Shown here: piece after piece, positions 30,230 to 49,333 of the stretch | Layout: every line of letters begins with the position of its first letter | How positions within the stretch are numbered: the first letter of the stretch is position 1 | The notes under the pieces: model-generated | The model's database searches: none | Told to the model about the DNA's origin: nothing | What the model saw: the letters and a program-made list of their open reading frames with translations, nothing else | Program-made: the position numbers and the translations under genes | NCBI GenBank assembly: GCA_050697555.1 | Contig: JBOHAD010000002.1 | Coordinates: 10,464-74,463, forward strand | Source: Gaiellaceae bacterium | GTDB taxonomy: Bacteria; Actinomycetota; Thermoleophilia; Gaiellales; Gaiellaceae | Direction: 5' to 3' | Length of the DNA: 64,000 nucleotides

Positions 30230-30296
30230 AACCCGCGCCAGAGCCCGGGAGCGTCGCTAACACGCATGAAGAGCGGGATTCCAGATGACTAGAGAG

Positions 30297-30343
30297 GATG
30301 GCCCCGGGAGGAGTCGAAGCTGGGCACGCGGATTCGAAGCCCG
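30297..30343 (-). repeat. degenerate copy of the tRNA-Arg(TCG) 3' half (old att site)
   Basis: gatggccccgggaggagtcgaaGctGGgcacgcggattcgaagCccg differs at 4 positions from the repeat at 35581..35627 and 59656..59702. The T-stem no longer pairs. Confidence 0.6.
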
Positions 30344-30390
30344 AGGACCGAAACCCGATTTGCAGGGGGAAACTGCTCGATGTGAAGGCG

Positions 30391-30412
30391 GCGCGCCAGT
30401 GTGCGCGCCATT
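30391..30412. repeat. GCGCGCCAGT / GCGCGCCATT direct repeats
   Basis: Same 10-mer as at 5800..5821 and 22601..22631, located about 50 nt inside the islet boundary. Confidence 0.45.
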
Positions 30413-30732
30413 CCCGCGTAGGGCGCTGAGTGACGCAATCACTGCGGCCCGATGTCCTCGTCACTATCTACGGGCTCGACCAGCCGCAGGTCGCCTCTCC
30501 GCCGACTGGTCGACCTCAGCGGCTCCCGTTCCGCGCACCACGAGATTGCCGCGGTTTTCGAGACCGGACTGAAAGGGCCGATTTGCAGCGGGTTATGACC
30601 TGGTTCGCCAGTAAGTTCTAGCACGCAGCTCCTCGAACGCATGGAGATAAGTCGAGTGCGACACTCGACGCCAAGCGCGGGCGGAGGCGGGCGAGTCCTC
30701 GGCTCTTGAAACCAAGGCTGTAGTCGCTTACC

Positions 30733-31095
30733 TTGACAGCTGTAGTCAGCAGAGGACGGACGTTGGACCGCAGTCCCAACGCGCTTGTGAAGGTCGATCT
30801 CGGCGGGAACCGTTTCGTCGCCGTCGAGGCGCACAACGTCAGCCCGGAGAGGCCGGTCGGGATCCGAGACGTTCTCCCGTTCGAGGGACTCTCGGACTCC
30901 ATCGAAGCGATCGCAGAGCGCATGACGGCGGCCTTCGATCGCGTGAAACCCGACCGGGCTGCAGTCGAGTTCGGCGTCGACGTCGGCGTGGAGTCCGGCG
31001 GGCTGACTGCGCTGATCGTGAAGGGGACCGGCACCGCCACGATCAAGGTGACGCTGGAGTGGCAGAACAGCAAGGCGACCGAGGATGAAGGATGA
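30733..31095 (+). CDS. trypsin-co-occurring domain 2 (trypco2 / CU044_2847-like) small protein
   Basis: VKVDLGGNRFVAVEA...AAVEFGVDVGVESGGLTALIVKGTGTATIKVTLEW matches the remembered family pattern (V.FG.K...E.G..IAK...E....V.L.W). The start may be GTG 30787. Its stop overlaps the next start (ATGA). Confidence 0.65.
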   Translation: MTAVVSRGRTLDRSPNALVKVDLGGNRFVAVEAHNVSPERPVGIRDVLPFEGLSDSIEAIAERMTAAFDRVKPDRAAVEFGVDVGVESGGLTALIVKGTGTATIKVTLEWQNSKATEDEG

Positions 31096-32945
31096 TGAGC
31101 ACGGCCGGAAACGGCGCCGGCCTGATCACCGACCGCGAGTTGCGCGTGTGCACGGTTCGCATCGATGTCGCCGGCGCGCCCAAGGGGACTGGCTTCTTCG
31201 TCGCTCCCGGCCACGTCGTGACGTGTGAGCATGTGCTCGGAGGTGCGACCGAGGGCATCCAGATCTCGGATGTCGACGGCGCCGAGTACTCGCTCGTCAA
31301 GGTCGCGGATGTCTCCAAGGACGCCGACCTCGCCGTCCTTCAGGTCAAGCCCGCAGCCGAGCACCGCTGCGTGCTGCTCATCGGCGGACAGAACTTCGAG
31401 GATCGCTTCCTCACATTCGGCTACTCCGAGCTCCACCGCGAAGGCGTTCCGAGCCCACTCGTAGCCGAGGGAAACACGGGTGACGAGCGGCTCCTGAAGC
31501 TCGGCCGGGGACAAGTTCAGCCGGGCATGAGCGGCGCGCCCATCCTCAACAGGCGCACAGGCGGAGTGTGCGGCGTCCTCAGCTGGACGCGCAACGAGCA
31601 GACGGACCTCGGTGGATATGCCATCCCGATCGAGCGATTGTGGCTCCTGAGCCCGACCCTCAAGAGGCAAAACGAGGCGTACCACGAGGCGCATCGTGAC
31701 GAGTGGCTCGACAAGCTGCCGATGATCCAGAAATCGGTATTGCTCAACGCGCGCCCGGGAACGCCCTCCACCGCGGGCTTCACGACCTGGTTCGTCGTCT
31801 CGGTCGGGGGTGAGCAGCGCCACTGGCGGGTCAGCGCGACGCTGCACCCGAGCGGCGAGCTTCTTCCTGCCGAGCCGGCGGACGTGCACCTCGTGCTCGA
31901 CCAGGCGGCGCGGCTCTTCCGCGATTGGGCTGCGCGTCCACGTGTCGACCCGACCGGCACAATCCAGTGGCGGTTCAACCAAGGCGAGGCAATCCGCCTG
32001 CTCGGAAGCATCCTCTTCGACGCTGTGCTGCCGGACGAGATCGGGAGGCGCTTCGACGAGCTCTTGGCGGCCGGAGACGAGCGCGTCCAGCTCGCGCTCC
32101 ATTTCGACCGGACGGTCATCCCGACGGAATTCGTCGACATGCCCTGGGAGTACCTCTACCTCGGCGATGAGCGCGGCTTCCGGAGAGACGCGCACGTAGC
32201 GGCCGAGGAGAAGCTCGCGTTCGTGCGCGTCGAGCAGAACGAGTTCCGAGAGCCCGACCGGCCGACCGGGCGCCAGCTGTCCGCGCTGATGGTCCGGGTC
32301 ACGCCGCCTTCGCAGGGCGGCGACTCCGCCGTCGATGACATTTCCGAGCACGCCTGCGACGTCATTCGTGACCTCGCCGGATTCGAGGCCAAGCCGCTGG
32401 TGATGGCGAAGGCCCTGGATCTTAGGGACGAGATCGCGCTCGGCGCGTATGACATCGTCCACTACGTCGGCTTCGGGCGCTACCACGAGGGCGCCGATCG
32501 CCTCGCGCTCGGAGGCTCGCCCGACTATGACTATCGGGAGGCGCAAATGTTCGCGACTCTCCTGCCGGACGCCGAGCAACGACCGCGCGTCGTCGTCCTC
32601 CAACAGATCGACGGGCCGAGCGAGTTCGTCCCCCCGGACCTCTCCGTCTTCGCCTGGAGGCTCCTCGAGCGCGGCGTGGAAGCCGTCGTGGCGTACCAGT
32701 TCCCGCTCGCCGCGCGGTTCAGCAAGGCGTTCAACAAGGAGCTCTACACCCAGCTCGCCGCCGGCGAGTGCCTGGAGAACGCAGTGCAGAAGGCACGCGC
32801 GTTGATCTGGACCATGGAGCCGGACGTCCATGCTTTCCGCGCGCCGGCCGCCTTCGTGACCCGGCCCGGCGAGCTCAGACTTACCGCCCGAGCAGGGCCG
32901 TCCGCTCCGTCGGCCCGGGTCGGCGTGACCGCAGGACACGCGTAA
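31092..32945 (+). CDS. trypsin-like serine protease fused to a CHAT (caspase-fold) domain that appears catalytically degenerate
   Basis: S1 triad contexts are VVTCEHVL, KDADLAVLQV and QPGMSGAPIL. The C-terminal half has CHAT topology (VQLALHFD...DMPWEYLYL; DIVHYVGFGRY; RVVVLQQIDG; GVEAVVAYQFPL...F...LY..LAAGECLENAV). Confidence 0.8.
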   Translation: MMSTAGNGAGLITDRELRVCTVRIDVAGAPKGTGFFVAPGHVVTCEHVLGGATEGIQISDVDGAEYSLVKVADVSKDADLAVLQVKPAAEHRCVLLIGGQNFEDRFLTFGYSELHREGVPSPLVAEGNTGDERLLKLGRGQVQPGMSGAPILNRRTGGVCGVLSWTRNEQTDLGGYAIPIERLWLLSPTLKRQNEAYHEAHRDEWLDKLPMIQKSVLLNARPGTPSTAGFTTWFVVSVGGEQRHWRVSATLHPSGELLPAEPADVHLVLDQAARLFRDWAARPRVDPTGTIQWRFNQGEAIRLLGSILFDAVLPDEIGRRFDELLAAGDERVQLALHFDRTVIPTEFVDMPWEYLYLGDERGFRRDAHVAAEEKLAFVRVEQNEFREPDRPTGRQLSALMVRVTPPSQGGDSAVDDISEHACDVIRDLAGFEAKPLVMAKALDLRDEIALGAYDIVHYVGFGRYHEGADRLALGGSPDYDYREAQMFATLLPDAEQRPRVVVLQQIDGPSEFVPPDLSVFAWRLLERGVEAVVAYQFPLAARFSKAFNKELYTQLAAGECLENAVQKARALIWTMEPDVHAFRAPAAFVTRPGELRLTARAGPSAPSARVGVTAGHA

Positions 32946-32951
32946 CGCGCG

Positions 32952-35507
32952 ATGAGCCACGCGCTCGACACGATCCGGGACGCGGCGCGTTGGCTGGGCC
33001 CGCATCCGACCTCGCCGGAACAGGAGCTCAACGACATCCGCGACCGCTGGCGCGCCTCCTTCGCAGACGTCGCGCAGGATGCGCACCGGCTGGCCGCGCT
33101 CGTCGACGAAGCGTTGGCGTCCGCAAGCTCCGTGGAATCGTTCGACGCCGAGCGCACTGGCTTCGAAGAGCTGGCAACGGCAGGGAAGCAGGCCGTAGGG
33201 CGGATCCGCTCCGTCATCGACCACATCGACCGGCTGCGCGACGAGTGGAGGGCCGTGCACCGCTTTACGCCCGAGGCGCTCGAGGCCCTGAAGCAGGAGC
33301 TCGACGCGAGGCTCGCCGACTCGAGCGGTGGCGGCGCTCGGGCCTGGCTGAGCGAGCTCCTCGACGCGGCGGACGCCGGCGAGGAAGAGGCGGCAGCGGC
33401 GATCGCGACGGCCGATCTGCCCTGGCCTGAAGATCTTCGCCCGGGCGCAGCGCGGCTGGCGGAGGCGTTTCGGGACTGGCGTGACGGCGGGCCGCCGCCT
33501 GCCCTCGAGCCGATCGAGGAGGTCGCGGAAGGGGCGCTCGCGGGATGGCAGGAGTTGCTGACGCGCGACCTTCGGAGTCGAGCGCATCGATTCGCGGCCT
33601 GGACCGTGCTTCGAGGCGAAGGCGATTCAGCCCGGGCGGTCGCCCACATGGACACTGCGGTCAAGCTTTATCCCTATGCGGGTCGGATGCACGCGGAGCG
33701 CGCCGCGTTCCGCCTGTTCGTCGGCGACTTCGAGCGGGCTGCGACCGACGCTCAGCACGCGATCGAGATGACGCCGCAGGAGCCGTTCGGCTACCTGATG
33801 CTCGGCATCTGGGCCGAGCTGACGGGCAAGTTCGCCACGGCCGATGACCTCTACCGGCGTGGGTTCAGCCGCATGGCAACCGCCGCCGTGGCGCACGTCC
33901 ACAATCGCTCGGCGCTCATTGACCCGCCGGGACGGCTCCTAAAGATGGCGGCCGCCGTGTTGCTCGAGAGCGGTCGCCCCGAGCAGGCTCTCGAGCTCGC
34001 GGACGAAGCGCTGCTGAGCGGCGTCCGCGGCGTGGAAGCGCACCCCGAGGCGGATGCGCACGTGATCCGTCGGAAGGCGCTCGAGCAGCTCCCGGACCGC
34101 CCGCGAAGCCAAGCAGCCGACGCTGCCATCAAGGCCGGCCGGCTGTGCCTCTGGAACGGCGACGTTGATTGCGCGATCGACGAGCTCGATCGCGCGACGA
34201 AGCTCGGCGGGCCTCCGGAGAGCGGCTGGCTCCTCGCGGACGCGCTGCTGACGAAGAGCTACCCGCTCGGCGCGCTGACCCCCGACCAGGAGCTCGTTGC
34301 GCGCGCGCGCTCAATCTGGGAGGCCACGGTCGACGAGACGGGGATCCCGCGTGGGCGTACTGCGTGGGCATACGTCACGAGGGCGATCGTCGCCGATCTC
34401 CAGTCGCAGCGCCCGGACACCGATCGCCGGCGCCCCGGTCTCTTCGAGGCGCTCATGTACGTCGAAAAGGCGATCGTGCATAACTACACCGATGCGCAGC
34501 GGTGGGGCTATGTCGCGCAGTACCTTCGCTACCTCGGGCTCGAGGAGCTGGCCTTCGAGGCGGCGGAGGCCGGGTACGAGCTCGCAGCAGCCGACAGGCA
34601 AGTTCTCGCCGAGCGGCTCCCGCTGCTCGCCAACCGACGCGCGTTCGACGAGGCCGAGGCCGTCGCCGAGCAGCTTGTGGCGATGTACGGCGAGGACCCG
34701 TGGGTGAGCGCCGTCCGCGCGTGGCTCGCGCTCCACCACCGGCGGGACGACGAGCGCACGCTAGCGCTACTCCAGCTCCCGATTACACAGGGCAACGACC
34801 AAGCCTGGTACTGCGAACTGCAAGCCCACGCGTATCTCCTGCGGGACGATGTCGCGGAGGCTCGCGCCGCGTACGGCCGGGTGCTCGAGGTCGAACCGAT
34901 CGACGGCAACACGAAGTGCCGTTTGGCCCGGGCGTCGCTGGCGCTCGGGAAGACCGAGGACGCGCGGGGGTGGCTCGCGAAGGCACGGGACGATTCGACG
35001 ACGCCGCGCCCGAGCTACGTCGTGACGGCCGCGCTGCAGGCTGTTGCTGCCGGCGATTCCGAGGCCGCAGTGCGGAGGCTCGGCGAGGCCGTCCGCCTCG
35101 CGTCGAGTGCCGTGGAGATCGATGACATCCTGTTCGAGACGACGCTCGCGATGCGCGCAACAGCGGCGGACGGAGCCGAAGCTGCGGCCGCACGGGAGCG
35201 CGAGCTCCTCGAGGCTACGAAGGAGACCGTCGCGGAACGGAAGTCAGAGCTCGAGCGGGATCCTCCGACGGCCGACTCGGAACTCGAACGCGCGTTGGCA
35301 GGGCTACCCGAAGGTTCGCTCGATATGCCGGCGATCGCTCTTCTCGCCCTGGCCGGCCGTCGCGACGCAGCCGCCGGTCGCCACGACATCGCCCGAGGGC
35401 GGTATGAGCAGCTGCGCGGCACATGGTTCGAACCCGAGGCGACAATCGCCTTCGAGCGGGAGCTCAAGCGCGTGCGGACGCGCAACGTGTCCATGTCGCG
35501 CCGGTAG
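32952..35507 (+). CDS. large TPR-repeat protein with about 230-aa helical N-terminal region
   Basis: 851 aa. Many 34-aa A/L/Y-rich repeats (for example AERAAFRLFVGDFERAATDAQHAIEMTPQEP). No P-loop seen. Confidence 0.8.
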   Translation: MSHALDTIRDAARWLGPHPTSPEQELNDIRDRWRASFADVAQDAHRLAALVDEALASASSVESFDAERTGFEELATAGKQAVGRIRSVIDHIDRLRDEWRAVHRFTPEALEALKQELDARLADSSGGGARAWLSELLDAADAGEEEAAAAIATADLPWPEDLRPGAARLAEAFRDWRDGGPPPALEPIEEVAEGALAGWQELLTRDLRSRAHRFAAWTVLRGEGDSARAVAHMDTAVKLYPYAGRMHAERAAFRLFVGDFERAATDAQHAIEMTPQEPFGYLMLGIWAELTGKFATADDLYRRGFSRMATAAVAHVHNRSALIDPPGRLLKMAAAVLLESGRPEQALELADEALLSGVRGVEAHPEADAHVIRRKALEQLPDRPRSQAADAAIKAGRLCLWNGDVDCAIDELDRATKLGGPPESGWLLADALLTKSYPLGALTPDQELVARARSIWEATVDETGIPRGRTAWAYVTRAIVADLQSQRPDTDRRRPGLFEALMYVEKAIVHNYTDAQRWGYVAQYLRYLGLEELAFEAAEAGYELAAADRQVLAERLPLLANRRAFDEAEAVAEQLVAMYGEDPWVSAVRAWLALHHRRDDERTLALLQLPITQGNDQAWYCELQAHAYLLRDDVAEARAAYGRVLEVEPIDGNTKCRLARASLALGKTEDARGWLAKARDDSTTPRPSYVVTAALQAVAAGDSEAAVRRLGEAVRLASSAVEIDDILFETTLAMRATAADGAEAAAARERELLEATKETVAERKSELERDPPTADSELERALAGLPEGSLDMPAIALLALAGRRDAAAGRHDIARGRYEQLRGTWFEPEATIAFERELKRVRTRNVSMSRR

Positions 35508-35580
35508 TGCTCGCCTTGGAGCCCCCGGGCCAGTAGACGACGCTGACGTATCAAAATTAGCTCTTTACGGGGAGCTTCGT

Positions 35581-35627
35581 GATGGCCCCGGGAGGAGTCG
35601 AACCTCCGCACGCGGATTCGAAGTCCG
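35581..35627 (-). repeat. attR-type direct repeat: exact 47-bp copy of the tRNA-Arg(TCG) 3' half
   Basis: gatggccccgggaggagtcgaacctccgcacgcggattcgaagtccg is identical to 59656..59702. Confidence 0.85.
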
Positions 35628-35729
35628 TCTGGGCAGGCTGCGGCGAAGCGCGCTTCGCGGAAAGTTCCTGCAAAGAAGTCATTCCAGATTGCAGTGGCTT
35701 GCTTCGAATGGCGCCCTTTGGAGGCAAGC

Positions 35730-35751
35730 CGGTACGCGCACGGTACGCGCA
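35730..35751. repeat. tandem GGTACGCGCAC x2 (candidate integrase arm sites)
   Basis: Perfect 11-mer twice here and once at 59586..59596, just inside the opposite island end. Confidence 0.55.
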
Positions 35752-36004
35752 CCCCTGGGCACGAATCCCTGCAGCGCGCGGAAACCCTGGAGAAGCCAGA
35801 CCCGGCTACACAGGGACGATCGCGTCGGCAGCGAGCTGAATCGCCACCGGCGTGCCGCGCTCGAGCCGCTCAAGGAGCGCGAGGTTTCCCAGACCCGTGA
35901 TTCCTGTCCATGGCCTGAGTCCAGGCCGGACCTTGCGCGGCCGGAGGGGAGCCGAGTTCCGGCTCACCCTCTGGTCGTCGGCTGGCCCAGGAATCGCCAC
36001 GGCC

Positions 36005-36859
36005 TCATACGGGGAAGACCTCCGCGAAGAAGTCGGCGAAGACGGCGAGGGCAAGAAGCCAGAGGCCGACTAGGACGAGGATGCGGCCGCCCCAGCGCTT
36101 CAGGGCGGGTGCGCTCTCCTCCAGCGTTCGGGCGACTCGGTCCTGGCCGGCCGCCAGCAGGAGGGCGAGCGTGAAGACGAGGAGGATCATCGTCAGGGCG
36201 GCGACGAGGAAGGCGAGGAACGCGGGTGCGAATCCGCCCATCGTGAGCGCTTGCCCGGCCAAACCGGCCAGGATCGGGCCCGTTCAGCCGAAGCCGGCGA
36301 GGATGTAGCCGAAGCCGAAGACGAAGTGGCCGGCAAGGGGTCGGCGGCGGCGAAAGCCCGCCTGCCGTCGGAGCAATCCATGCACCGCCGGCTCGAATCC
36401 TCTGAAGGAGATGCGAAGTCGGCCGAGCTGGACGAGCCCGAGGAGGATGAGGAGCGCGCCGACGAGAGCGCGGATGAGACGGCCGGTTGTGCTCGTGAAG
36501 GTCACGCCCTCGAAGAGTGCGGCCCCGGCGATCGCAATCAGCGTGCCCGTGAGGAGGAGGAAGGTGGCCGCTCCGAGCGCGAGCGCCGCCGCGAAGACGA
36601 AACCCGCGCGCCCGTCGCCGCCTCGCCCGCGAGGCGCGTGGGCGAGGATCGAGAGAAGGAGGGGGAAGGAGCAAGGCGAGAAGAAGGAGGCGATGCCCGC
36701 GCCGGCGGCTAACAGGAGGAGCCCGCCTCCCGTCCCTGCCGGCAGCTCGAAGCGGGGGTAGACGACATAGCCGAAGTAGCCGACGAGCGCGACGACAACG
36801 GTCGCGAGCGCGAGCAGCGCGTAGCGGGCCCGCGGATCAGCGAGAACCTTCTCGGTCAC
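36005..36859 (-). CDS. CcdA/DsbD-core family membrane protein with in-frame TGA (36284..36286) at the second redox Cys: candidate selenoprotein
   Basis: ORFs 36284..36859 and 36005..36262 share one frame and are separated by a single TGA. FFSPCSFP aligns with the first CcdA motif, and AGFG-TGA-TGPILAG aligns with GWTPCVGPTLAA of the paralog at 40491..41204. A hairpin follows the TGA. Confidence 0.6.
36254..36272 (-). other. candidate bacterial SECIS hairpin
   Basis: mRNA reads UGA-ACGGGCCCGAU-CCUGGCC-GGUUU-GGCCGGG: a 7-bp stem starting 11 nt after the UGA, with a 5-nt loop starting GG. Confidence 0.45.
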
Positions 36860-36962
36860 GCCGGCAACCGTAGAGATTGCCGTAGCGGGAAGGTCAGGCG
36901 GCTAGGGTTGACGGCATGGCGGCGGCCAAAGTTCGAGACGTCGGCCGCGGAGCCAGCGCCGC

Positions 36963-38111
36963 TCAGGCCACAAACGTCGGCGGCGCGAGCACCGGAACGG
37001 GACAGTTGACGGTAAACACGGTCCCTTTCGTGTCGGGCATGCCTGGGAACTCGTCGAGCTCGCCTCCGTCGCGGGCCGCGTGGATCTCCTTTTCGCTGGT
37101 CAAGAGACGGGCTTCGGCATCGTCCGCCCACCCATACGTGAAGTGGTCCCAGTAAGGACTCCATTCTGGCGCGCCGGCGTCGAAGTCGAAGACGGACGGC
37201 TGGAAGCCCATCGGTCCAGGCCCGGGGAGGCCGTTCATGAAGACGTTCGTGCGGCCCGTCGCGCCTGCTTCGCTCGGTCCGCCCTGCAAACCAGGCGAGA
37301 AGATCGTCTTCGTCATCGCCGCCGCCGGGGCGATCGAGTGCTCGGTGACGAAGTATCGGCTGCCCGGATAGCACTGACCGAGCTTGAAGGTGACGCGCAT
37401 TGCGCCGGTGTCCGGCGGCTCGAGAAGCGGCCCCTCGCCGAGATAGCCCTTGCGCTCTCGGTCGACAGCGAGCTCGCCGGTTGACCACTTGATAATTGCG
37501 GCGTTGAGGACGAATCCGCTGTCCTCGACCATGAGCGCGCCTGCGCGCTTGGCCTCTTGGATCTCTGCCACTGAAGCGAGCTCGCGTGGGCCGTTGCTCC
37601 AGCGCAAGTAATGGACACGCCAGGCCGGCGTGTAGGCCTCGCGCCCCGGCTCCGATGAGAAGATCGCGGGCCGGTCCGCGGCGACGCGATCCACGTAGAC
37701 AGCACCCGAAAGCTTCGGGGTCGCGAGAGCGGCCAGCTTCGGCACGAAGACGAGGCGCTCCGCGTCAGCGAAGCCCTCGTCCGAGACGTCCGTGCGGATG
37801 AAATAGACGTCGCTCCCGTCCACGCGCCCGCCATGGAGGCGCATCGTGACGAAGCCGAAGTCACCGTCCCATTCGTCGGATTCAAGCGAGAAGTCGACGA
37901 CGTCGCCGATGATGGGCCGGGCCCGCTCCGCCGCCTCCTCGAGTGTCGCCGTCCCGACGCCTGACTCACTAGGCGCCGCCTCGTCCCCGCTGCCGCCGCA
38001 GGCGGCCAGCAGGGTCGGGCCAAGCGTGCCGACGGCCACCACACCTGTGGCACGCCGGAGCAGCTCCCCCCGGTCGAGTCGAACTGTCGCAATCGATCCC
38101 TGAGGTTGCAC
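36963..38111 (-). CDS. Tat-signal lipoprotein of unknown function
   Basis: GTG 38111 is preceded by GAGGGGGG. Twin-arginine motif and lipobox (ELLRRATGVVAVGTLGPTLLAACGG). The conserved-looking C-terminus is WSPYWDHFTYGW...FTVNCPVPV. Confidence 0.7.
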   Translation of the reverse strand: MQPQGSIATVRLDRGELLRRATGVVAVGTLGPTLLAACGGSGDEAAPSESGVGTATLEEAAERARPIIGDVVDFSLESDEWDGDFGFVTMRLHGGRVDGSDVYFIRTDVSDEGFADAERLVFVPKLAALATPKLSGAVYVDRVAADRPAIFSSEPGREAYTPAWRVHYLRWSNGPRELASVAEIQEAKRAGALMVEDSGFVLNAAIIKWSTGELAVDRERKGYLGEGPLLEPPDTGAMRVTFKLGQCYPGSRYFVTEHSIAPAAAMTKTIFSPGLQGGPSEAGATGRTNVFMNGLPGPGPMGFQPSVFDFDAGAPEWSPYWDHFTYGWADDAEARLLTSEKEIHAARDGGELDEFPGMPDTKGTVFTVNCPVPVLAPPTFVA

Positions 38112-38249
38112 GTCTGCCCCCCTCGTTGGACTGCCGAACAAGTAGGTTGGATGCGAGCGGGCGACGAACGTCGCTGCGCCACGCGTCTCGGCGCCTCGTC
38201 GCACGAGCGAGCGCGTGGACGGAGAGCCCGGGCAGTTTCAATCGACCTT

Positions 38250-38414
38250 CCGGAGGGAGAGTTGGCCGTGCGGAGGAGCGAACCGGTCCTGTCGACGGAA
38301 TCGAGATGCGGTGGCTCGAGCGCGGTGCCGATCGTATTCGTGCGTGGGATTCCGACCTCGCCAGAGCTGTGGCGCCTGGTCTTGTCGCTCGTCCCCTCGT
38401 CTGTGGCGCGATGA
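38250..38414 (+). pseudogene. N-terminal relic of an alpha/beta hydrolase (haloalkane dehalogenase-like)
   Basis: DGIEMRWLERGA in one frame and PIVFVRGIPTSPELWRLV in another, followed by a stop. Confidence 0.35.
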
Positions 38415-38787
38415 TGCGGTCGGCGCTACGCGAAGGCGCGCAGCTCAGGCAAGGGGCCAACCGATCGAGGAGGAGTTGACGGCCGTCCACACGCAGGGTG
38501 CGAGCGTGCCGGAGATGAGCCGCTAAGGGCGGCCGCGGCCGTCACGACTGGGGGGCGCTGTGTGAGGTGCAGGCGACGGCGCGCTGCCCGGCGGCAGCGT
38601 CCGCTTTCGCGTCCGCGTAGTAGAAACGTGAGGAGCCCGGCGGCGAAGAGCATTCCTCGGTGAAACGGGCCTGCGCGCCCGCTCTCGGGTGGAGCCTTTC
38701 CGACTCCTTGCGAGTGACCCTAGTCTTGCCCACTCCCGACACGGACGGCATGCGGCGCCAGGGCGGCTGGGGGCATCCAACGGATGG

Positions 38788-39927
38788 ATGAGGCGCATCG
38801 TCGTGCTGGGCGGGTTGCTCGCGCTCGTCGCCATGGGCTGCGGTGGCGGCGATGAGGGCGGCGCGGGCGGGGGGCGGTCGAGCGGAGAGGCGAGTGACGA
38901 GCTTGCCGTCTCGACTCTCGGGTGGGAGACCGACTTCTCCAAGCACACGGTGCCCCTCTCAGAATTCATGAGCGGGGGACCGGGGAAGGACGGGATCCCG
39001 GCGGTCGACGAGCCGAAGTTCGTTTCGGTCGAGGAGGCAGGCGACTGGCTCGCCGCGCGGGAGCCGGTCATCGAGCTCGAGCTCGGCGGTGTCACCCGCG
39101 CGTATCCGCTCCAGATTCTCGTCTGGCACGAGATCGTGAACGACGAGGTTGCCGGTCGCCCTGTGGCGGTGACGTTCTGTCCCCTCTGCAACACGGCCAT
39201 CGTCTTCGACCGGCGTTTGGACGAACGGGTGCTCGACTTCGGCACGACAGGCAATCTGCGCCACTCGGACCTCGTCATGTACGACCGCCAAACCGAGAGC
39301 TGGTGGCAACAGTTTGGGGGCGAGGCCGTCGTGGGCGAGCTCGCCGGCGAGCGCCTGGAGCTGCTGCCCTCGCGGATCGTCGCCTGGGGGGACTTCGCCG
39401 GCCGCCATCCCGACGGGGAGGTTCTCTCCCGGGACACAAGCTTCGGCCGCGACTACGGCCGTAATCCCTACGCCGGCTACGACGACGTCGACTCGGGCCC
39501 CTTCTTCCCTGCGAAGGGAGCGGACGACGATCGACTCCTGCCGAAGGAACGCGTCGTGTTCATCGAGCTCGAAAACGAGGCCGTCGCGGTTCCGTTCTCT
39601 GTCCTGCGGAAGGAGCAGACGATGGAGGTGGAGGTCGGGGGAGAGCGGCTCGAGCTCCGCTGGGTGCCGGGGGTCGGTTCCGCGCTCGACTCGCCCGACA
39701 TCGGGGATGGGCGCGAGGTCGGCTCCGCGGAGGTGCGGTCGCTCGTGAGTGGCGAGCCGGTGCCGTTCGACCAGCCGTTCTGGTTCGCGGTTGCCTCCTT
39801 CCGCCCCGACATCCGGATCGTGGGAGCCGAGGCGGGGGCGAGCTCCTCCTCGTCCGCCCCAAAGGACACCGTCCCGGCCGCGCCAGCCTCTCCGCCGCGG
39901 CGCGGTTACCTGGCTCCTCAGGCGTAG
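38788..39927 (+). CDS. DUF3179 domain-containing lipoprotein
   Basis: Lipobox LVAMGCGG. GKDGIPAVDEPKF, ELGGVTRAYPLQILVWHEIVND, TFCPLCNTAIVFDR and GTTGNLRHSDLVMYDRQTESWWQQ are typical DUF3179 motifs. Confidence 0.85.
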   Translation: MRRIVVLGGLLALVAMGCGGGDEGGAGGGRSSGEASDELAVSTLGWETDFSKHTVPLSEFMSGGPGKDGIPAVDEPKFVSVEEAGDWLAAREPVIELELGGVTRAYPLQILVWHEIVNDEVAGRPVAVTFCPLCNTAIVFDRRLDERVLDFGTTGNLRHSDLVMYDRQTESWWQQFGGEAVVGELAGERLELLPSRIVAWGDFAGRHPDGEVLSRDTSFGRDYGRNPYAGYDDVDSGPFFPAKGADDDRLLPKERVVFIELENEAVAVPFSVLRKEQTMEVEVGGERLELRWVPGVGSALDSPDIGDGREVGSAEVRSLVSGEPVPFDQPFWFAVASFRPDIRIVGAEAGASSSSSAPKDTVPAAPASPPRRGYLAPQA

Positions 39928-39932
39928 CCGCG

Positions 39933-40475
39933 CTACTCCCAGGTGATCGAGCGTCGGACCCAGCTGAACTCGGCCGCGTGAGCGGTCTGGTTCTCGGCGG
40001 CGAAGATGATGATCGCCACTTCGCCGGAGTCGAGCTCGATTCCATAAACGCGCATGGTCGGGCCAAGCGGGTCGTCCTGGTTGGCCGCCCAGATGATCGA
40101 CGCCTCGACGCCGGGTCGGTCGCCGATGCGGGCGGTCTGCGTGTACACGAGCGTCGTTCCGTCACCCCGGGGAGGACGCAGGATGGCGGCGGCGAGCTCG
40201 GCAAACTCCGCATGGGATCTGTGCTTGCGCCGCGGGAGATACTGCACGCCGATGAAGGCCGCTGTTCGCTCCGTGTTGTCGTTCAGGAGCTCGCCGAAGC
40301 GGTCGGAGCGGCCTCGGCCCCAGTCGCTCGGGTATCGCAGCGTCAGCCGTCCATCCGCGTAGGTCTCGTCGATCCAGGAGGGGAAGTATTCCTCGACCGG
40401 TGGCGTGGAGGTCTGTTCGTTGCCGAGCGAGCAGCCCGCCCCGAGGAGAGCGAGGAGAACAAGAATCGTGGGCAC
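39933..40475 (-). CDS. lipoprotein of unknown function
   Basis: Lipobox LLGAGCS. 180 aa. Confidence 0.65.
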   Translation of the reverse strand: MPTILVLLALLGAGCSLGNEQTSTPPVEEYFPSWIDETYADGRLTLRYPSDWGRGRSDRFGELLNDNTERTAAFIGVQYLPRRKHRSHAEFAELAAAILRPPRGDGTTLVYTQTARIGDRPGVEASIIWAANQDDPLGPTMRVYGIELDSGEVAIIIFAAENQTAHAAEFSWVRRSITWE

Positions 40476-40490
40476 ATCCGGTTGGATGCG

Positions 40491-41204
40491 TCAGATCTGC
40501 CAACCGGTGTAGCGGGCGAGCCGTGTCGTCAGTCGGACGAGGTCGCCGCTGATGAGGAGCGCGCCGAAGGCGACGAGCACAGTGGCGGAGGCAACGCTGA
40601 CGGTGCGCCAGTGACTGCGCAGCCAGCGGACGAGCCCGAGCGAGCGCGTGAACGCGAGCCCGAAGAAGAGGAACGGCAGGCCGAGGCCGAGCGAGAAGGC
40701 GGCCAGGAGGACGGCACCCTCGGCCGCGCCTCCGCCTCCGGCTGAGAGCGTCAGGATCGCCGCCAGCGTCGGCCCGACGCAGGGCGTCCACCCGATCGCG
40801 AATGCGACTCCGGTGAGCCCGGAGGCAGCCATGCTTCCGCCGGGTCGGAGGCCGAGGCGGCGCTCGGTCGAGAGGAGCCGCGGAAGGGGGAGCCCGAGGA
40901 AGGTGACGGCGGCGACGATGATCAAGATCCCCGCGGCGATCTCGAGCGGGCGCCGGTTCTCGAGCAGGAAACTGCCGAACCAGGCGGCCCCGGCGCCGAA
41001 CGCGACGAACATGGCCGTGAATCCGCCGACGAAGGCCGCCGTAGACGTGGTGACCCGGCGCGGGCGGGCGCCGAGCTCGTCGAAGCCGACCCCCGAGACG
41101 AAGGAGAGATAGCCGGGCACGAGCGGGAGCACGCAAGGCGATGTGAAAGAGACGACGCCGGCGGCGAAGGCGAGCGCCAGCCCTGCGGGGCCGAGCTCGA
41201 TCAC
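40491..41204 (-). CDS. ccdA: cytochrome c biogenesis / thiol-disulfide transfer protein CcdA
   Basis: FTSPCVLPLVPGYL and IGWTPCVGPTLAAIL motifs, 6 TM. GTG 41204 overlaps the stop of the upstream reductase (GTGA). Confidence 0.88.
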   Translation of the reverse strand: MIELGPAGLALAFAAGVVSFTSPCVLPLVPGYLSFVSGVGFDELGARPRRVTTSTAAFVGGFTAMFVAFGAGAAWFGSFLLENRRPLEIAAGILIIVAAVTFLGLPLPRLLSTERRLGLRPGGSMAASGLTGVAFAIGWTPCVGPTLAAILTLSAGGGGAAEGAVLLAAFSLGLGLPFLFFGLAFTRSLGLVRWLRSHWRTVSVASATVLVAFGALLISGDLVRLTTRLARYTGWQI

Positions 41205-42565
41205 GTATCCGCAGCCGGGTCGAGCGGCAGGTCGCGGGCGGCAAAGAAGAGCGCCTCCGAGAAGGTGGGGAAGGGCTGGATTGTGCTTCGGAGGACGTCG
41301 ACGGGGACTTCCGCCTGGATCGCGAGCGTGACCTGGCCAATCCACTCGCCGGCCTCGGGGCCGACGGCGACCGCGCCGACCAGGATGCGACGCCCGGGAT
41401 CCGCGAAGAGCCTGACGAAGCCGGGCCGCTTCGGTCGCTCATAGGTCGAGGAGCGCGAGGTGGCGTTGACCTCCCAGCTCGCGGAGACGAGCCCCTCGCC
41501 GTCGGTGCGGCCGACCGAGGCGACCTGAGGGTCGGTGAAGGCTACAGCCGGAACCGCCCGGTAGTCGGCCCGGGCGTCGCCGCCGGCGACGTTCACCGCG
41601 GCCACCCGTGCCTGATACTTGCCCATGTGCGTGAAGAGCGCGATCCCGGTGACGTCCCCGATCGCCCACACGTTCTCCGCGGCCTGGAGGCGGTCGTCGA
41701 CCTCGATTCCGGTCCTACCGAGCCGCACGCCGACGTCCTTGAGACCGAGTCCGTCGACATTCGGACGCCGGCCGGTCGCGACGAGGAGCCGTTCCGCCTC
41801 GAGCAGCACGCCTCCGGGGAGGTGGAGGCGGAAGCCGTCCGACGTCCGCTCGACCGCCTCCGTGAGCGTGTTCAGGAGGATGTCGATTCCCTCCTCTTCG
41901 AGGGTGGCCTGGATGAGGCGACCCGCGTCGGGGTGGTCGCGGGGCAAGAGATGGTCGATGTCCTGGACGATCGTGACCCTCGTGCCTAGCCGTGCGAAGA
42001 ACCGGGCGAGCTCGCAGCCGACCACCCCGCCGCCGAGCACGACGAGGCTGCCCGGCAGCTCGCGAGTCGTCGTCGCCTCGCGGTTCGTCCAGTAGCCGCT
42101 GCCCTTGAGGCCGTCGATGGGGGGCGCGGAGGCCGAGGAGCCCGTCGCGACGACGAGCTTCTGGTACTCCACCTCGCGGTCTCCGACTTGGAGGGGGCCG
42201 GGGCGGACGACCCGTCCGGCGCCGCGGACGACTTCGACCTGTCGGTCGGCGAGCCAGGTCTCGTGGCTCGAGTCGTCGAGCTCGTCGGTAACGTGGTCCC
42301 GCCACCAGAGGACGCGCTCCCAGTCCGTCTCTCCGTTGACCGCCTCGGCCGCACCCGGGGCGCGGCGTGCCGCCGCGACGACTTCGAGCGGGCGCAGGAG
42401 CGTCTTCGAGGGCATGCACGCCCAGTAGGTGCACTCGCCCCCGAGGAGTTCTCTCTCGACGAGCGTGATCGGCACCTCGGCATCGAGGCGCCTGAGCGCC
42501 CCGCCGCACGCCTCGCCGGTCGAGCCGCCGCCGAGGACGACGACGCGTCCGCCCTCACCTGCCAT
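41201..42565 (-). CDS. class I pyridine nucleotide-disulfide oxidoreductase (LpdA/dihydrolipoyl dehydrogenase-like)
   Basis: VVVLGGGSTGE FAD motif. Redox pair GGECTYWACMPSK. NAD motif VVLGGGVVGCELA. C-terminal dimerisation domain. The ATG at 42565 is preceded by GGAGGGAG. Confidence 0.88.
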   Translation of the reverse strand: MAGEGGRVVVLGGGSTGEACGGALRRLDAEVPITLVERELLGGECTYWACMPSKTLLRPLEVVAAARRAPGAAEAVNGETDWERVLWWRDHVTDELDDSSHETWLADRQVEVVRGAGRVVRPGPLQVGDREVEYQKLVVATGSSASAPPIDGLKGSGYWTNREATTTRELPGSLVVLGGGVVGCELARFFARLGTRVTIVQDIDHLLPRDHPDAGRLIQATLEEEGIDILLNTLTEAVERTSDGFRLHLPGGVLLEAERLLVATGRRPNVDGLGLKDVGVRLGRTGIEVDDRLQAAENVWAIGDVTGIALFTHMGKYQARVAAVNVAGGDARADYRAVPAVAFTDPQVASVGRTDGEGLVSASWEVNATSRSSTYERPKRPGFVRLFADPGRRILVGAVAVGPEAGEWIGQVTLAIQAEVPVDVLRSTIQPFPTFSEALFFAARDLPLDPAADT

Positions 42566-42687
42566 TGATTCGCTCCCTCCGTTCGATCGTAGGATGCACT
42601 GCTCGTGTTCGATTCCCCGGGAGCGCCGAACGTTGCACGGCCACTCCTTGCGGCGCTCGACCGCCCGCGCGCATCTGAAGGAGAGCC

Positions 42688-44172
42688 ATGAGCGGGAACG
42701 GCGCACCGAGAGCCCGCATCGACCGGCCCGAGGTCTTCCTCGAGCTGACCAAATCGATCTGCCCTCTCTGCAAGCGGGTGATCGACGCGGAGGTCAACGT
42801 GCGTGACAACCGCGTGATCATGCGCAAGCGCTGCCCCGAGCACGGGCCCTTCGAGGCCCTCGTCTACTCCGATGCCGAGCTCTACACGGCGCAGCTCCGC
42901 TTCAACAAGCCGGGGACGTTGCCGCTCGAGTTCCAGACGGAGGTGAAGGACGGCTGCCCGTTGGACTGCGGGCTCTGTCCCGAGCACAAGCAGCACGCCT
43001 GCCTGGGGCTGATCGAGGTGAACTCCAACTGCAACCTCGACTGTCCCATCTGCTTCGCCGACTCGGGGCACCAGCCCGACGGGTTCGCGCTGACGGTCGA
43101 GCAGGTCTCCTTCATGGTCGACCGCTTCGTGGCCGCGGAGGGGGAGCCGGAGGTGCTCCAGTTCTCCGGAGGCGAGCCCTCCATCCACCCGCGGATCGTC
43201 GAGTTCATGGAGCTCGCGAAGGGACGCGGGATCCGCGTCGTCATGCTGAACACGAACGGCCTCCGGCTCGCCCGCGACCCGCGTTTCGCCGCCGAGTGCG
43301 CCCGCGTGGGGTCGCACGTCTACCTCCAGTTCGACGGCTTCGAGCGCGAGACGCACCTGGCGATCCGGGGTCGTGACCTGCGCTCCGACAAGGAGCGAGC
43401 GCTGGCCAACTGCCAACGGGAGGGTGTGAGCGTGACCCTCGTGGCGGCCGTCGAGCGGGGCGTGAACGAGCACGAGGTCGGCGAGATCGTCCGCCTCGGC
43501 GTCTCCCACCCGGCCGTGAACAGCGTCGTCTTCCAGCCCGTGACGCATGCAGGCCGGCACCTCGTCTTCGACCCTCTCGAGCGTCTCACGAACGCCGATG
43601 TCATGAAGCTCGTCGCCGCTCAGGTGCCCGAGTGGTTCCGGGTCGACGACTTCGTTCCCGTCCCCTGCTGCTTTCCGAACTGCCGCAGCATGAGCTATGC
43701 GCTCGTCGACGGGGGAGACGTGATTCCGCTCACGCGCCTCTTCGAGGTCGAGGACTACCTGGACTACCTCTCGAACCGGGTCATCCCCGACCTCGAGATC
43801 CGGGGCGCGCTCGAGCGGATGTTCTCGTCGTCTGCGACGCCCGGCGCCGAGGCCGCCCTCCTCGCCTGTGAGAGCTGCGCGGTCGACGTTCCTGCCGCCC
43901 TCGCCGACGTCCGTGAGCACGCGTTCGTGCTCGCCGTGCAGGACTTCCAGGATCCGTACACGCTGAACGTCCGCCAGCTGATGAAGTGCTGCATCGCGCA
44001 GATCACGCCGGACGGGCGACTCATCCCCTTCTGCGCCTACAACTCCGTCGGCTACCGCGAGCAGGTGCGCGCGCTGCTGACCGGTGCCGAGGTTGTGCCG
44101 GTCGTCCCGAACGCGGAGCCGCTCCAGCCCTTGCTGGCCTACACGTCCTACGGATCGAGGCGCCTGCCGTGA
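42688..44172 (+). CDS. radical SAM protein with N-terminal Cys-rich ribbon (MJ0619 / tetraether-synthase-like branch, from memory)
   Basis: ICPLCKRVIDAEV...KRCPEHGPF, GCPLDCGLCPEHKQH, and radical SAM cluster motif NSNCNLDCPICFA (CxxxCxxC). LQFSGGEPS SAM-binding motif. Confidence 0.85.
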   Translation: MSGNGAPRARIDRPEVFLELTKSICPLCKRVIDAEVNVRDNRVIMRKRCPEHGPFEALVYSDAELYTAQLRFNKPGTLPLEFQTEVKDGCPLDCGLCPEHKQHACLGLIEVNSNCNLDCPICFADSGHQPDGFALTVEQVSFMVDRFVAAEGEPEVLQFSGGEPSIHPRIVEFMELAKGRGIRVVMLNTNGLRLARDPRFAAECARVGSHVYLQFDGFERETHLAIRGRDLRSDKERALANCQREGVSVTLVAAVERGVNEHEVGEIVRLGVSHPAVNSVVFQPVTHAGRHLVFDPLERLTNADVMKLVAAQVPEWFRVDDFVPVPCCFPNCRSMSYALVDGGDVIPLTRLFEVEDYLDYLSNRVIPDLEIRGALERMFSSSATPGAEAALLACESCAVDVPAALADVREHAFVLAVQDFQDPYTLNVRQLMKCCIAQITPDGRLIPFCAYNSVGYREQVRALLTGAEVVPVVPNAEPLQPLLAYTSYGSRRLP

Positions 44173-45005
44173 CCGCAAGCCCGGAGGCGATCAAGGCCTG
44201 CTGCGCGACCGCCTACGCCTCGCCCGTCGCGCGCTGGCTCTTGGGCTCGAGCTTCCATCCCGGCGGGGTGGCGCTCACGCGGCGGCTGATCCGTTCCCTC
44301 GGCGTAGGTTCGGGCGACACGGTCGCGGACGTGGCATGCGGCCCGGGCGCGAGTTCAATGCAGCTTGCCCGCGAGGCGGGGTGTCGCGTCGTCGGGATCG
44401 ACCTCTCGTCCGAGTCCATCGAGTCGGCCCGGCGCGCAGCAGAAGAGACGGGGCTCGCCGCCTCGGTCAGCTTCGTGGTCGGGGACGCGGAGGCGCTTCC
44501 TCTCGAGGACGCGAGCGTCGACGGGGTCCTCTGCGAGTGCTCTCTCTGCACGTTCCCGGACAAGCGTTCGGCGGCCGCCGAGCTCTCCAGGGTCTTGAAG
44601 CCGGGCGGACGGCTCGCGCTCTCCGACATGACCGCCGATCCCGCGAAGCTGCCCGCGTCGCTGCGGACCCTCGAGGCCTGGATCGCCTGCCTGGCCGACG
44701 CGCGTCCGCTTCCTGCGCTCGTCGAGCTCCTCCGCGGCGCGGGGCTCGTCGTCGAGAGCGTGGAGCGCCACGACGACGCGCTCGCACGACTCCTCGACCG
44801 TGTCGAGGCGCGCCTTCGCCTCGCACGGGTCGCCCTCGCCCACGGCGGCGATCCCGCTCTCGTCGACCGCGGCCTTGAGCTCGTGGCGGTCGCGCGAGAG
44901 AGCCTCGAGCGCGGCTTCCTCGGCTACGCCGTCCTCGCCGCCCGCCGGCCGGCCGGCCGAGTCGAAGCGACCGCCAGGCCGGTCGGCGCATCGAACCTCG
45001 TGTGA
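44169..45005 (+). CDS. class I SAM-dependent methyltransferase, ArsM-like (CC motif)
   Basis: IKACCATAYASPVARWLLGSSFHPGG, VADVACGPGASS (motif I), VDGVLCECSLCTFPDK and LKPGGRLALSD. The GTG start overlaps the rSAM stop (GTGA). Confidence 0.8.
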   Translation: MTASPEAIKACCATAYASPVARWLLGSSFHPGGVALTRRLIRSLGVGSGDTVADVACGPGASSMQLAREAGCRVVGIDLSSESIESARRAAEETGLAASVSFVVGDAEALPLEDASVDGVLCECSLCTFPDKRSAAAELSRVLKPGGRLALSDMTADPAKLPASLRTLEAWIACLADARPLPALVELLRGAGLVVESVERHDDALARLLDRVEARLRLARVALAHGGDPALVDRGLELVAVARESLERGFLGYAVLAARRPAGRVEATARPVGASNLV

Positions 45006-45607
45006 GCGGCGAAGAACGTCCGCGAAACCGCCGCCCTCCCCTGCGGATCGGCCTCGCGGCGCTTGCGCTGGCTGCCCTTCTTGCCGTAGCGGTCTTCGCC
45101 GCTCTCGCCCTCCTCTCCGACGACGGAGCGCTCCGGGGGAGCCCGAGCCCCGGCTCCCCCGGCGCCTCCTCGGCGCAACCGGTCGCAGTGACGCCGGAGG
45201 AGGCGCCGACGCTGCTCGGGGAGGATCCGATCAGCGGGGAGGAGGTCACGCTCGCCGACTTCCGTGGGAAGCCGGTGGTGATCAACGTCTGGGCCTCCTG
45301 GTGCCCGGGCTGCAACGACGAGGCGGCCGACCTGCGCGAGTTCGCCGCCGACCACCCCGAGGTCGTGGTCCTGGGCGTCGACTTCCAGGACACCGTCGAG
45401 GGGGCGCGCCGCTTCTACCGGCGCTGGGAGTGGACGCACCCGAGCATCTTCGACTCGTCGGGAACGCAGAGCGCGGCGCTGGGGCTTTTCGGCATGCCGA
45501 CGACCCTGTTCCTCGACAGCCGGCACCGCATCGCCGCGCGCGTCGTGGGGGCCACCGACCGGGCCGGATTCGAGCACGGGCTCGAGCTCGCCACGCAGGC
45601 CTCGTAA
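45002..45607 (+). CDS. membrane-anchored TlpA/ResA-family thiol:disulfide oxidoreductase (CPGC)
   Basis: TM anchor, then FRGKPVVINVWASWCPGCNDEA. The GTG start overlaps the methyltransferase stop (GTGA). Confidence 0.88.
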   Translation: MSGEERPRNRRPPLRIGLAALALAALLAVAVFAALALLSDDGALRGSPSPGSPGASSAQPVAVTPEEAPTLLGEDPISGEEVTLADFRGKPVVINVWASWCPGCNDEAADLREFAADHPEVVVLGVDFQDTVEGARRFYRRWEWTHPSIFDSSGTQSAALGLFGMPTTLFLDSRHRIAARVVGATDRAGFEHGLELATQAS

Positions 45608-45692
45608 GAGAGGCCGGTGCTCCGTGCAACCGGGAGGGCGCGTGCGCATCGGACCGCGAAGGTAAGACAAACGACAGAGGGGGCAAGCTGCG

Positions 45693-46199
45693 ATGCAGTT
45701 CAACTGGTGGGAAGGCCTCGCAGCGGGCGCGGTCGCGACCGTGGCGATGACAGTCCTCATGCAGATGGGTGCGGCGATGGGCATGACGCGCATGAACATG
45801 GCCCTCATGCTCGGCTCTATGTTCCGCCGCGATCCCGAGTCTGCCAGGTCGGTAGGGATGACCCTCCACTTCATGAACGGCCTCGCGTTCGGCGTTCTCT
45901 ACGCACTCGTCTGGAGGGCGATCGATCCTGCCGATCTCGCCGACGCCTGGTGGATCGGTCTCATCTTCGGCGCCGTGCACGGGGTGGTCGCGATGGCCAT
46001 GATGCCGGTGATGAGCGCCATGCACCCGCGCGTCCGAAGCGACGCGCTGGCGGTCTCCGAAGGACCGGGGAGCGAGGTGCGGCTCCCCCCGTTCGGCTTC
46101 GGCGGCCGCGGCTTCGGTGCGATGACGCCGATGGGCATCCTGCTCGGCCACCTCGTGTTCGGCGTCGTCTGGGGGTTCGTTTTCTGGTGGCTCGCCTAG
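45693..46199 (+). CDS. integral membrane protein (4 TM, Met-rich)
   Basis: 168 aa, hydrophobic, Met/Gly-rich. Confidence 0.65.
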   Translation: MQFNWWEGLAAGAVATVAMTVLMQMGAAMGMTRMNMALMLGSMFRRDPESARSVGMTLHFMNGLAFGVLYALVWRAIDPADLADAWWIGLIFGAVHGVVAMAMMPVMSAMHPRVRSDALAVSEGPGSEVRLPPFGFGGRGFGAMTPMGILLGHLVFGVVWGFVFWWLA

Positions 46200-46219
46200 A
46201 CGGAAACACAACGGTCGCC

Positions 46220-47684: not shown

Positions 47685-47701
47685 TCTGCCGCGGAGTCGC
47701 C

Positions 47702-47974: not shown

Positions 47975-48043
47975 GGTCTCTTGGATGCGGCGGCCGCCGG
48001 GCCCGTCGCAGGCTAGCGGAACAAGGCTGCTAGCGTCCTCCCG

Positions 48044-49282: not shown

Positions 49283-49333
49283 GCACTGGCGGCCGCACAT
49301 CCGTTCATAAGCAGGAAAGATCCTTCGGCTACG

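Follow-up and report, generated by a model that had tools for sequence, protein, structure and literature searches.

In a 64,000-nt stretch of DNA from Gaiellaceae bacterium (GCA_050697555.1, contig JBOHAD010000002.1, positions 10,464 to 74,463; hereafter the window, whose own positions serve as coordinates), three adjacent genes on the forward strand very probably form a conflict module in which a Trypco1 protein is paired with a protease. We further read the segment 30763-35507 as a protease-effector module that is free of any nucleoside triphosphatase (NTPase) and that most likely acts against phage by abortive infection. This whole chain draws on analogy with characterised systems, and we consider it on balance probable. 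Gene 1 (30763..31095; 110 aa from a TTG start) encodes a small Trypco1/CU044_2847 protein, the proposed latent effector. Gene 2 (31092..32945; 617 aa) encodes a cytoplasmic protein in which a trypsin-like protease is followed by a linker domain and then by a CHAT domain without its catalytic residues (pseudo-CHAT). Gene 3 (32952..35507; 851 aa) encodes an all-helical TPR protein, the proposed sensor or regulator. An earlier note, made from the sequence of this locus, had put it forward as a candidate protease-based defence or toxin-activation module. The conserved, NTPase-free architecture on which that proposal was built has held up; a trypsin domain, a dyad-less CHAT domain and a TPR protein, co-conserved and lacking an NTPase, fit a protease-based conflict or toxin-activation module.

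Gene 2 joins an intact protease domain to a degenerate CHAT domain

The N-terminal part of gene 2 carries a Trypsin_2 serine-protease domain of the HtrA/DegS-like type (31143..31691, forward strand; aa 18-200). Residues 32-162 matched Trypsin_2 at 48.5 bits (cutoff 27.6; E 2e-12). An AlphaFold2 (AF2) model of the protein was built from 72 relatives, with a predicted local distance difference test (pLDDT) score of 88, and its best Foldseek matches were HtrA, DegS and MucD protease domains (E about 1e-10). The codons of the catalytic residues lie on the forward strand at 31230-31232 (His47), 31326-31328 (Asp79) and 31530-31532 (Ser147). The earlier note had called this triad intact, and so it is here and throughout nearly the whole family, being complete in 104 of 106 relatives of a first set and 80 of 81 of a further set (184/187 in all). 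The closest PADLOC models of the protease domain were RT-Protease_XI (3e-10), LmuA (2e-9) and Avs1b, all of them proteases attached to defence sensors.

A conserved linker domain (31734..32081, forward strand; aa 215-330) follows, with a three-stranded sheet, helices and the motif VARLFRDWA; it matched no known family. Because the best 50 Foldseek matches of the whole gene 2 model were all trypsin-fold proteases of the HtrA/DegS type, a fold-level statement on the linker or the pseudo-CHAT domain is impossible by this means, and the CHAT assignment comes from profiles.

The CHAT/caspase-fold domain without a catalytic dyad occupies 32082..32891 (forward strand; aa 331-600). Residues 443-575 matched CHAT (PF12770) at 25.3 bits, against a gathering score of 24, and the same family is carried by most gene 2 relatives. 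When a profile of the C-terminal 400 residues of the gene 2 family was compared with structures in the PDB, it matched the SAVED-CHAT protein 8tl0 with an E value of 9e-7 and 8rot with one of 0.011. The 8tl0 alignment places HYVGF461G on HFIGHG and VVLQQI506 on VVLNAC, the segments that hold the catalytic His and Cys, so that Phe461 (32472-32474) stands in place of the His and Ile506 (32607-32609) in place of the Cys. The earlier note had reported a Phe at the His position and no Cys after VVVLQQ, and had proposed an alignment to confirm the loss; in the alignment, both members of the dyad are absent. Cumulatively, these comparisons show that gene 2 encodes an intact and predicted active serine-protease domain together with a conserved domain of predicted caspase fold that lacks the catalytic His.

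The loss of the His is nearly general. The CHAT His was kept in 4/106 relatives of the first set and 1/81 of the further set, i.e. in 5/187, and is missing from about 97%; residues found at its position in the first set included F (60), Y (25) and L (5). The CHAT Cys is retained in about half of the deeper branches, and its position is Ile or Val throughout the clade of the window (P0001-P0026). With the Cys still present so often and the His lost nearly everywhere, we read the domain as having degenerated stepwise, His first and Cys later. A few relatives (P0028, P0030 at locus L027, P0032 and P0276) keep both residues and may have two active proteases or represent the ancestral state.

Substitution rates were estimated by comparing the window with three relatives that are 97%, 84% and 72% identical to it. 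The ratio of nonsynonymous to synonymous rates (dN/dS) of the pseudo-CHAT segment was 0.16-0.26, indicating purifying selection. Every segment of genes 2 and 3 lay between 0.07 and 0.36, the maximum of 0.36 being found in the gene 3 N-terminus. Around the former active site, residues H457, Y458, G460, D516, Y552, Q566 and R569 are invariant. Gene 2 would thus be a clean natural case of a protease that has become a pseudo-enzyme yet stays under selection.

The three genes are conserved as a unit

Relatives of gene 2 numbered 122 in a collection of 5.8 billion proteins. Nearly all were 590-640 aa long with Trypsin_2 plus CHAT, and they came from soil metagenomes and from metagenome-assembled genomes of Gaiellaceae and other Actinomycetota. 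When 1.84 billion cluster representatives were searched exhaustively with a profile, 3620 matched at E<=1e-30, an upper bound, as protease-only matches also reach this threshold; about 99 of the best 150 (50%-identity cluster representatives) were full-length, spanning protease and CHAT. Because a scan of a genome collection returned three true relatives, the taxonomic range is drawn mainly from metagenome names, which point to Gaiellaceae, Thermoleophilaceae, Solirubrobacteraceae and Nocardioidaceae. No full-length relative was found among phages in IMG/VR, by the patterns used, or among plasmids in PLSDB.

Co-conservation was assessed in twelve independent neighbourhoods. Nine of them (L001, L002, L003, L006, L007, L009, L014, L025 and L027) carry Trypco1, the trypsin/pseudo-CHAT protein and a large TPR protein in the same order, with the triad at L027 cut by a contig end; two others (L005 and L026) are degraded. 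Across the nine triads, gene 2 identity falls from 97% to 32%, and each triad has a different, unrelated set of neighbours. The three genes thus diverge in step and move as a group from one genomic setting to another. The stop of gene 2 and the start of gene 3 overlap by 8 nt in L002, L003, L004 and L025, and matching two tables of homologues pointed to 15 further putative gene 2/gene 3 pairs. Because nucleotide homology with other triads is confined to window positions 30692-35507, the conserved unit, judged in this way, is exactly these three genes. The earlier note had made its proposal depend on such co-conservation, which was found.

The divergence of the parts is correlated. At long range conservation is highest in Trypco1 and in the protease domain, and the N-terminal 220 residues of gene 3 and the pseudo-CHAT domain diverge fastest. 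The L004 clade has a different composition. It has no Trypco1 gene; instead, the protease/pseudo-CHAT protein begins with a fused TIR domain (about 180-230 aa), and the TPR partner (about 1025 aa) is retained (TIR-Trypsin-CHAT + TPR locus at L004 7001-12542, also represented by P0041, P0052 and P0057). The YCREEL sequence of this TIR we take to resemble the (W/Y)CxxE motif of NADase TIRs. Because TIR replaces Trypco1 in one clade, the comparison identifies the position upstream of the protease as a putative effector slot.

Gene 1 belongs to the Trypco1 family

Gene 1 matched Trypco1 (PF19493) at 57 bits (cutoff 24.6) and the NCBIfam model CU044_2847 (NF041216) at 58.3 bits (cutoff 23), and PF19493 was found in 83/83 of its homologues. 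There was no gene 1 match to Trypco2 (PF19631) at E<=0.1. The earlier note had named it a trypco2/CU044_2847 protein; the second half of this name stands, and the first has to be replaced by Trypco1. Within the triads the C-terminal half of the protein is extremely conserved (VEFGVDVGVESGxLTALIVKGTGTATLKVTLEW). Of its Ile residues, the one conserved best (54/84) belongs to a PVGI(G/R)D loop that spans residues 31-36.

Read from its first TTG, the gene 1 open reading frame (ORF) would span 30733..31095 (120 aa). Because AGAGGA lies just ahead of the TTG at 30763, and because the gene was called with a length of 110 aa, which matches this codon, on an identical public contig (GCA_975254935.1; L012), we adopted 30763 as the likely start. 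Both gene junctions were read directly and agree with the tight packing reported before: the gene 1 stop and the gene 2 start overlap as ATGA at 31092-31095, and genes 2 and 3 are spaced by 6 nt (TAA, cgcgcg, ATG), an arrangement that couples the translation of gene 2 to that of both its neighbours. The G+C content at third codon positions (GC3) of the three ORFs is 0.81-0.86, a signature of real genes in a genome of about 70% G+C.

Trypco1 and Trypco2 were named as small proteins encoded beside trypsin-like peptidases in predicted conflict systems, where the presence of one excludes the other (Kaur et al. 2020, PMC7159879), and they have since been grouped as 'Pepco' (Evans et al., bioRxiv 10.1101/2025.11.14.688446). 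In the latter work it was shown experimentally that SsPepco of Streptomyces subrutilus forms a beta-barrel of 9-10 subunits that is assembled in advance, that it becomes toxic once the SsAvs4 trypsin-like domain cuts off its C-terminal tail after Ile97 as a response to a phage portal protein, and that this Pepco protein is required for toxicity. The SsPepco sequence, taken from the supplement of Evans et al., is a Trypco2 (PF19631, E 5e-18), whereas gene 1 is a Trypco1 (PF19493). The likeness between the two loci is one of organisation. In each, a gene of about 110 aa lies immediately upstream of, and is coupled to, a trypsin-like protease, which is the N-terminal domain of a larger sensor-bearing protein, and both come from Actinobacteria. 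The logic of a latent effector activated by site-specific proteolysis would be shared as well, here by analogy. The sensors differ: that of SsAvs4 is a STAND ATPase fused to the protease, and here its place would be taken by the dead CHAT domain and a separate TPR protein.

A latent toxin freed by proteolysis is accordingly a well-motivated analogy for gene 1 and not a homology-based assignment. Transfer of the Trypco2 mechanism by homology was rejected, given no profile similarity between the small proteins and the weak resemblance of the SsAvs4 protease to gene 2 (marginal, BLASTP E 0.014). Pore formation by Trypco1, as judged from beta-strand or helical amphipathicity, was not used as an argument either; the maxima were no higher than those of shuffled sequences.

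Gene 3 is a TPR protein without an NTPase

TPR was the only family matched by gene 3. Its AF2 model is all-helical (pLDDT 91.8; predicted template-modelling score, pTM, 0.83), with a TPR solenoid that is preceded by a long helical hairpin at the N-terminus (aa 22-102); the fast-evolving region is aa 1-220. Foldseek returned generic TPR scaffolds only, such as Ski3, Ctr9, TTC7B and OGT. Neither gene 2 nor gene 3 matched an NTPase family, and gene 3 has no conserved Walker A. A single regular-expression match (ASLALGKT, aa 661) was discarded, as it sits in a TPR helix where the family consensus is ALGD, not GK[ST]. The description of gene 3 given earlier, TPR repeats plus a helical N-terminal region and no NTPase, is thus upheld. 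None of the three proteins has a stretch resembling a signal peptide or a transmembrane segment (maximum 19-residue hydropathy 1.3).

Proposed mechanism and alternatives

We propose that the TPR protein, the dead CHAT domain and the linker make up the sensing and regulatory half of the module, in which the protease would be held inactive until a trigger arrives. The trigger, probably a phage protein, would bind this half, which would control the oligomeric or allosteric state of the protease. Once freed, the protease may cleave Trypco1, or the fused TIR in the sister clade. Trypco1 would, if the analogy with Trypco2/Pepco holds, be a latent toxin that damages membranes, and the outcome would be cell death or growth arrest, i.e. 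abortive infection.

Several observations weigh against this chain. Because no similarity to the characterised Trypco2 was detectable, the effector role of Trypco1 is argued from position and mutual exclusivity only; comparison of the gene 1 family with SsPepco by hhalign gave a probability of 0.15% and an E value of 0.39. The Trypco1 tail beyond the invariant LEW is 1-16 aa long and variable and, unlike that of SsPepco, has no conserved Ile. No PADLOC model matched gene 1 or gene 3, there was no system-level match, and no segment displayed positive selection at the coarse scale of the three comparisons above. The neighbours of triads elsewhere are mostly housekeeping or metabolic genes, and a setting in classical defence islands, which the earlier note had suggested looking for, was not found around them. 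In the literature we found no description of a trypsin, inactive CHAT/caspase and TPR architecture, and no experimental precedent for it or for any Trypco1. The earlier remark that the module has not been studied experimentally is therefore right for this architecture; it does not extend to the general principle, as Trypco2/Pepco is a protease-activated pore toxin (10.1101/2025.11.14.688446).

Part of this evidence would suit a scheme in which the protease is itself the effector and degrades cellular or phage proteins, with Trypco1 serving it as adaptor, chaperone or inhibitor. Accessory domains of an adaptor type are what Kaur et al. and Dore et al. take Trypco1/2 to be, and both the missing homology to the pore-forming Trypco2 and the lack of a cleavable Ile-containing tail agree with such a role. 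We nevertheless regard this scheme as unlikely, given that a known effector domain, TIR, takes the Trypco1 position in the sister clade, that Trypco1 diverges more slowly at long range than the other components, which would be expected if it were an effector, and that the analogous Trypco2 is needed for toxicity. Improbable to a similar degree is a purpose other than defence against phage, be it a proteolysis or death module linked to stress or development, or an addiction cassette that stabilises the island with the TPR protein as inhibitor or antitoxin. The location of the triad outside recognisable defence islands, the lack of a matching PADLOC system and the tRNA-linked island region described below would all be in keeping with it, and so would an enrichment of such systems in multicellular or filamentous lineages, reported by Kaur et al. 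(PMC7159879). By contrast, the nearest models of the protease domain are defence-system proteases, the parts on the sensor side diverge fastest, and the swap of Trypco1 for TIR, together with the patchy distribution across unrelated contexts, is a hallmark of defence modules.

It is very improbable that the three genes are non-functional cargo of an old, decayed element, held between the flanking repeats by chance. The islet has no integrase, its left repeat is degenerate and 2/12 loci are visibly degraded, as would be expected of such a remnant. However, all three ORFs are intact, dN/dS was low in every segment in all three comparisons, the triad is conserved down to 32% identity, and the catalytic residues of the protease persist in about 98% of relatives. 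Purifying selection and co-conservation have thus already largely refuted decay.

Comparison with known systems

The pseudo-CHAT domain shares the caspase/CHAT fold of the SAVED-CHAT protein 8tl0, as indicated by the profile match above. The two differ in that the dyad is lost here and proteolysis would come from the fused trypsin-like domain, with no SAVED domain and no cyclic-oligonucleotide synthase nearby. Csx29 of type III-E CRISPR, a TPR-CHAT protease encoded as a single polypeptide next to gRAMP/Cas7-11, likewise associates CHAT with TPR repeats. In the triad, however, CHAT has lost its dyad and the TPR repeats belong to a protein of their own, and no cas-like Pfam matches were found among the flanking genes scanned.

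The ternary vWA-MoxR/VMAP conflict systems (PMC7159879), from which the Trypco1 and Trypco2 families were defined, have a similarly modular organisation in which effectors are swapped. They differ from the triad, which has no vWA, MoxR ATPase or VMAP within it or conserved beside it, and no NTP-dependent switch. Pairs of a trypsin-like protease with a metallo-beta-lactamase (MBL) nuclease or other partners (Tuck et al., Science 2025, PMC12799240; Evans et al.) likewise combine a protease, a swappable latent effector and diverse sensors. The effector (Trypco1 or TIR) and the sensor (pseudo-CHAT plus TPR) set the triad apart, and neither was found in the lists of those papers by searches of text and supplement. 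The effector logic is already known; the control module, a pseudo-caspase with a separate TPR protein and no NTPase, is not.

A bolder reading, which we offer tentatively and hold as possible, is that the triad represents a new class of NTPase-free bacterial pattern-recognition receptor. The TPR protein and the dead CHAT domain would act as an allosteric switch made of two proteins; the pocket of the former active site, lined by the invariant residues listed above, would bind a ligand or peptide and license the protease, unleashing Trypco1 as a second, structurally unrelated family of protease-activated membrane toxins. Separase and Csx29 provide a parallel, in that their arrangement of TPR plus pseudo-protease recalls the TPR and dead CHAT of the triad.

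The gating of death effectors by a protease is coming to be recognised as a major principle in prokaryotic immunity. In all characterised examples the partner of the protease is an NTPase (STAND/Avs), a CRISPR complex, a receptor of nucleotide signals or a reverse transcriptase. If the proposed mechanism is true, the same output would be controlled by a pseudo-caspase and a TPR protein without an NTP- or nucleotide-dependent switch. It would also give a first functional handle on Trypco1, a different family from the Trypco2 that has been tested. Uncultured Actinomycetota of soils carry the family widely, and the module is compact (4.8 kb) and directly clonable.

The triad lies in a tRNA-Arg integration hotspot

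The window contains one intact tRNA-Arg(TCG), on the reverse strand at 59656..59730, which is the integration target. Its 3' half recurs as a perfect copy (47/47) at 35581..35627 and as a degenerate copy (43/47) at 30295..30341, and all three copies are in direct orientation. A 19-mer of the repeat occurs 3 times where 0.02 would be expected, and a 44-mer twice where 0 would be expected. The earlier claim that a degenerate and a perfect copy of the tRNA-Arg(TCG) 3' half flank the genes is thereby substantiated, beyond chance.

The same claim had been extended to a self-contained islet bracketed by these repeats, and this part has to be given up. The perfect copy is the distal attachment (att) site of a 24-kb integrative mobilisable element (IME) that fills 35628..59655, between this copy and the tRNA. 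The element is complete and bounded by perfect 47-nt repeats. It encodes a Tyr integrase (58406-59530, forward strand) that abuts the tRNA, an HTH_17 Xis-like protein (58076-58372, forward), an HTH_3 repressor (57748-58071, reverse) and a TrwC relaxase (54302-56287, forward). Its redox cargo comprises a radical SAM protein with an HMPTM Zn-ribbon, Pyr_redox_2, a DsbD-like protein (DsbD_TM), AhpC/TSA, DUF3179 and DUF7482.

The metagenomic locus L014 is collinear with the window in two blocks, 30823-35550 at 97% identity and 59637-64000 at 95%. Because these blocks flank only 354 unrelated bases and an intact tRNA-Arg(TCG) in L014, the 24-kb element is present in the window and absent from L014, where the triad lies beside the tRNA. 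Most simply, the element appears to be a later insertion between triad and tRNA in the lineage of the window; its excision in the lineage of L014 is a conceivable alternative. The 354-nt spacer between triad and tRNA (L014 4721-5074) has no counterpart in the window, where the distance from the gene 3 stop to the att copy is only 73 nt.

For the degenerate repeat at 30295-30341 the best reading is the scar of an older integration at the outer edge of the hotspot, with the triad inside that older segment. The islet (30342-35580) holds the three genes only and no integrase or excisionase. Actinobacterial integrative and conjugative elements (AICE) and IME-type elements of actinobacteria target tRNAs. 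The region resembles them in the tRNA 3'-half direct repeats at tRNA-Arg(TCG) and in the genes for an integrase, Xis and relaxase that the 24-kb element alongside carries next to the tRNA; it differs in that the islet is devoid of integrase and excisionase and its right-hand repeat belongs to the neighbouring element. No repeat core or genuine tRNA was found next to the triad at L001-L007 or L009. A tRNA-Arg(CCG) called by ARAGORN in L006 (11712-11797, 86 nt) is probably a false positive, being GC-rich, coding-like and overlapping the end of the TPR gene. An empty site was also sought through metagenomic relatives of the HxlR gene on the left flank; none was found, as synteny stops right after the HxlR stop codon, with neither the triad nor a tRNA-Arg beyond it. 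This would agree with a variable region that starts there. The triad sits in a tRNA-Arg integration hotspot and is not itself a repeat-bounded mobile unit.

Leader and further features of the window

The genes had been said to fill the whole space between the repeats, which is incorrect at the left, where a 421-nt leader (30342..30762, forward strand) is non-coding. The leader is not common to the other triad loci, whose nucleotide homology begins at about 30692, and scans of 29.5-36.5 kb for promoters, terminators and Rfam families gave nothing above chance. A 15-nt direct repeat, CCGATTTGCAG(G/C)GGG, occurs in it at 30355-30369 and 30578-30592; its 9-mer core is found 2 times where 0.17 would be expected. 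In L014 a similar GGATTTGCAGGAG is located immediately beyond the tRNA, and together with the leader repeats it could mark old integrase arm sites or be due to chance.

Elsewhere in the window, a tRNA-like sequence on the reverse strand at 5697-5778 is 76% identical to the tRNA-Arg region of L014 and has a TCT-like anticodon loop; ARAGORN did not call it, and a tRNA pseudogene or a further remnant of an att site are possible readings. From about 9750 to 22700 there are ORFs of lower GC3 with almost no Pfam matches, including one of 933 aa (14582-17380, reverse strand). With tRNA-Arg(TCT) and tRNA-His (22730-22920) at its end, this stretch is a possible second island of foreign DNA.

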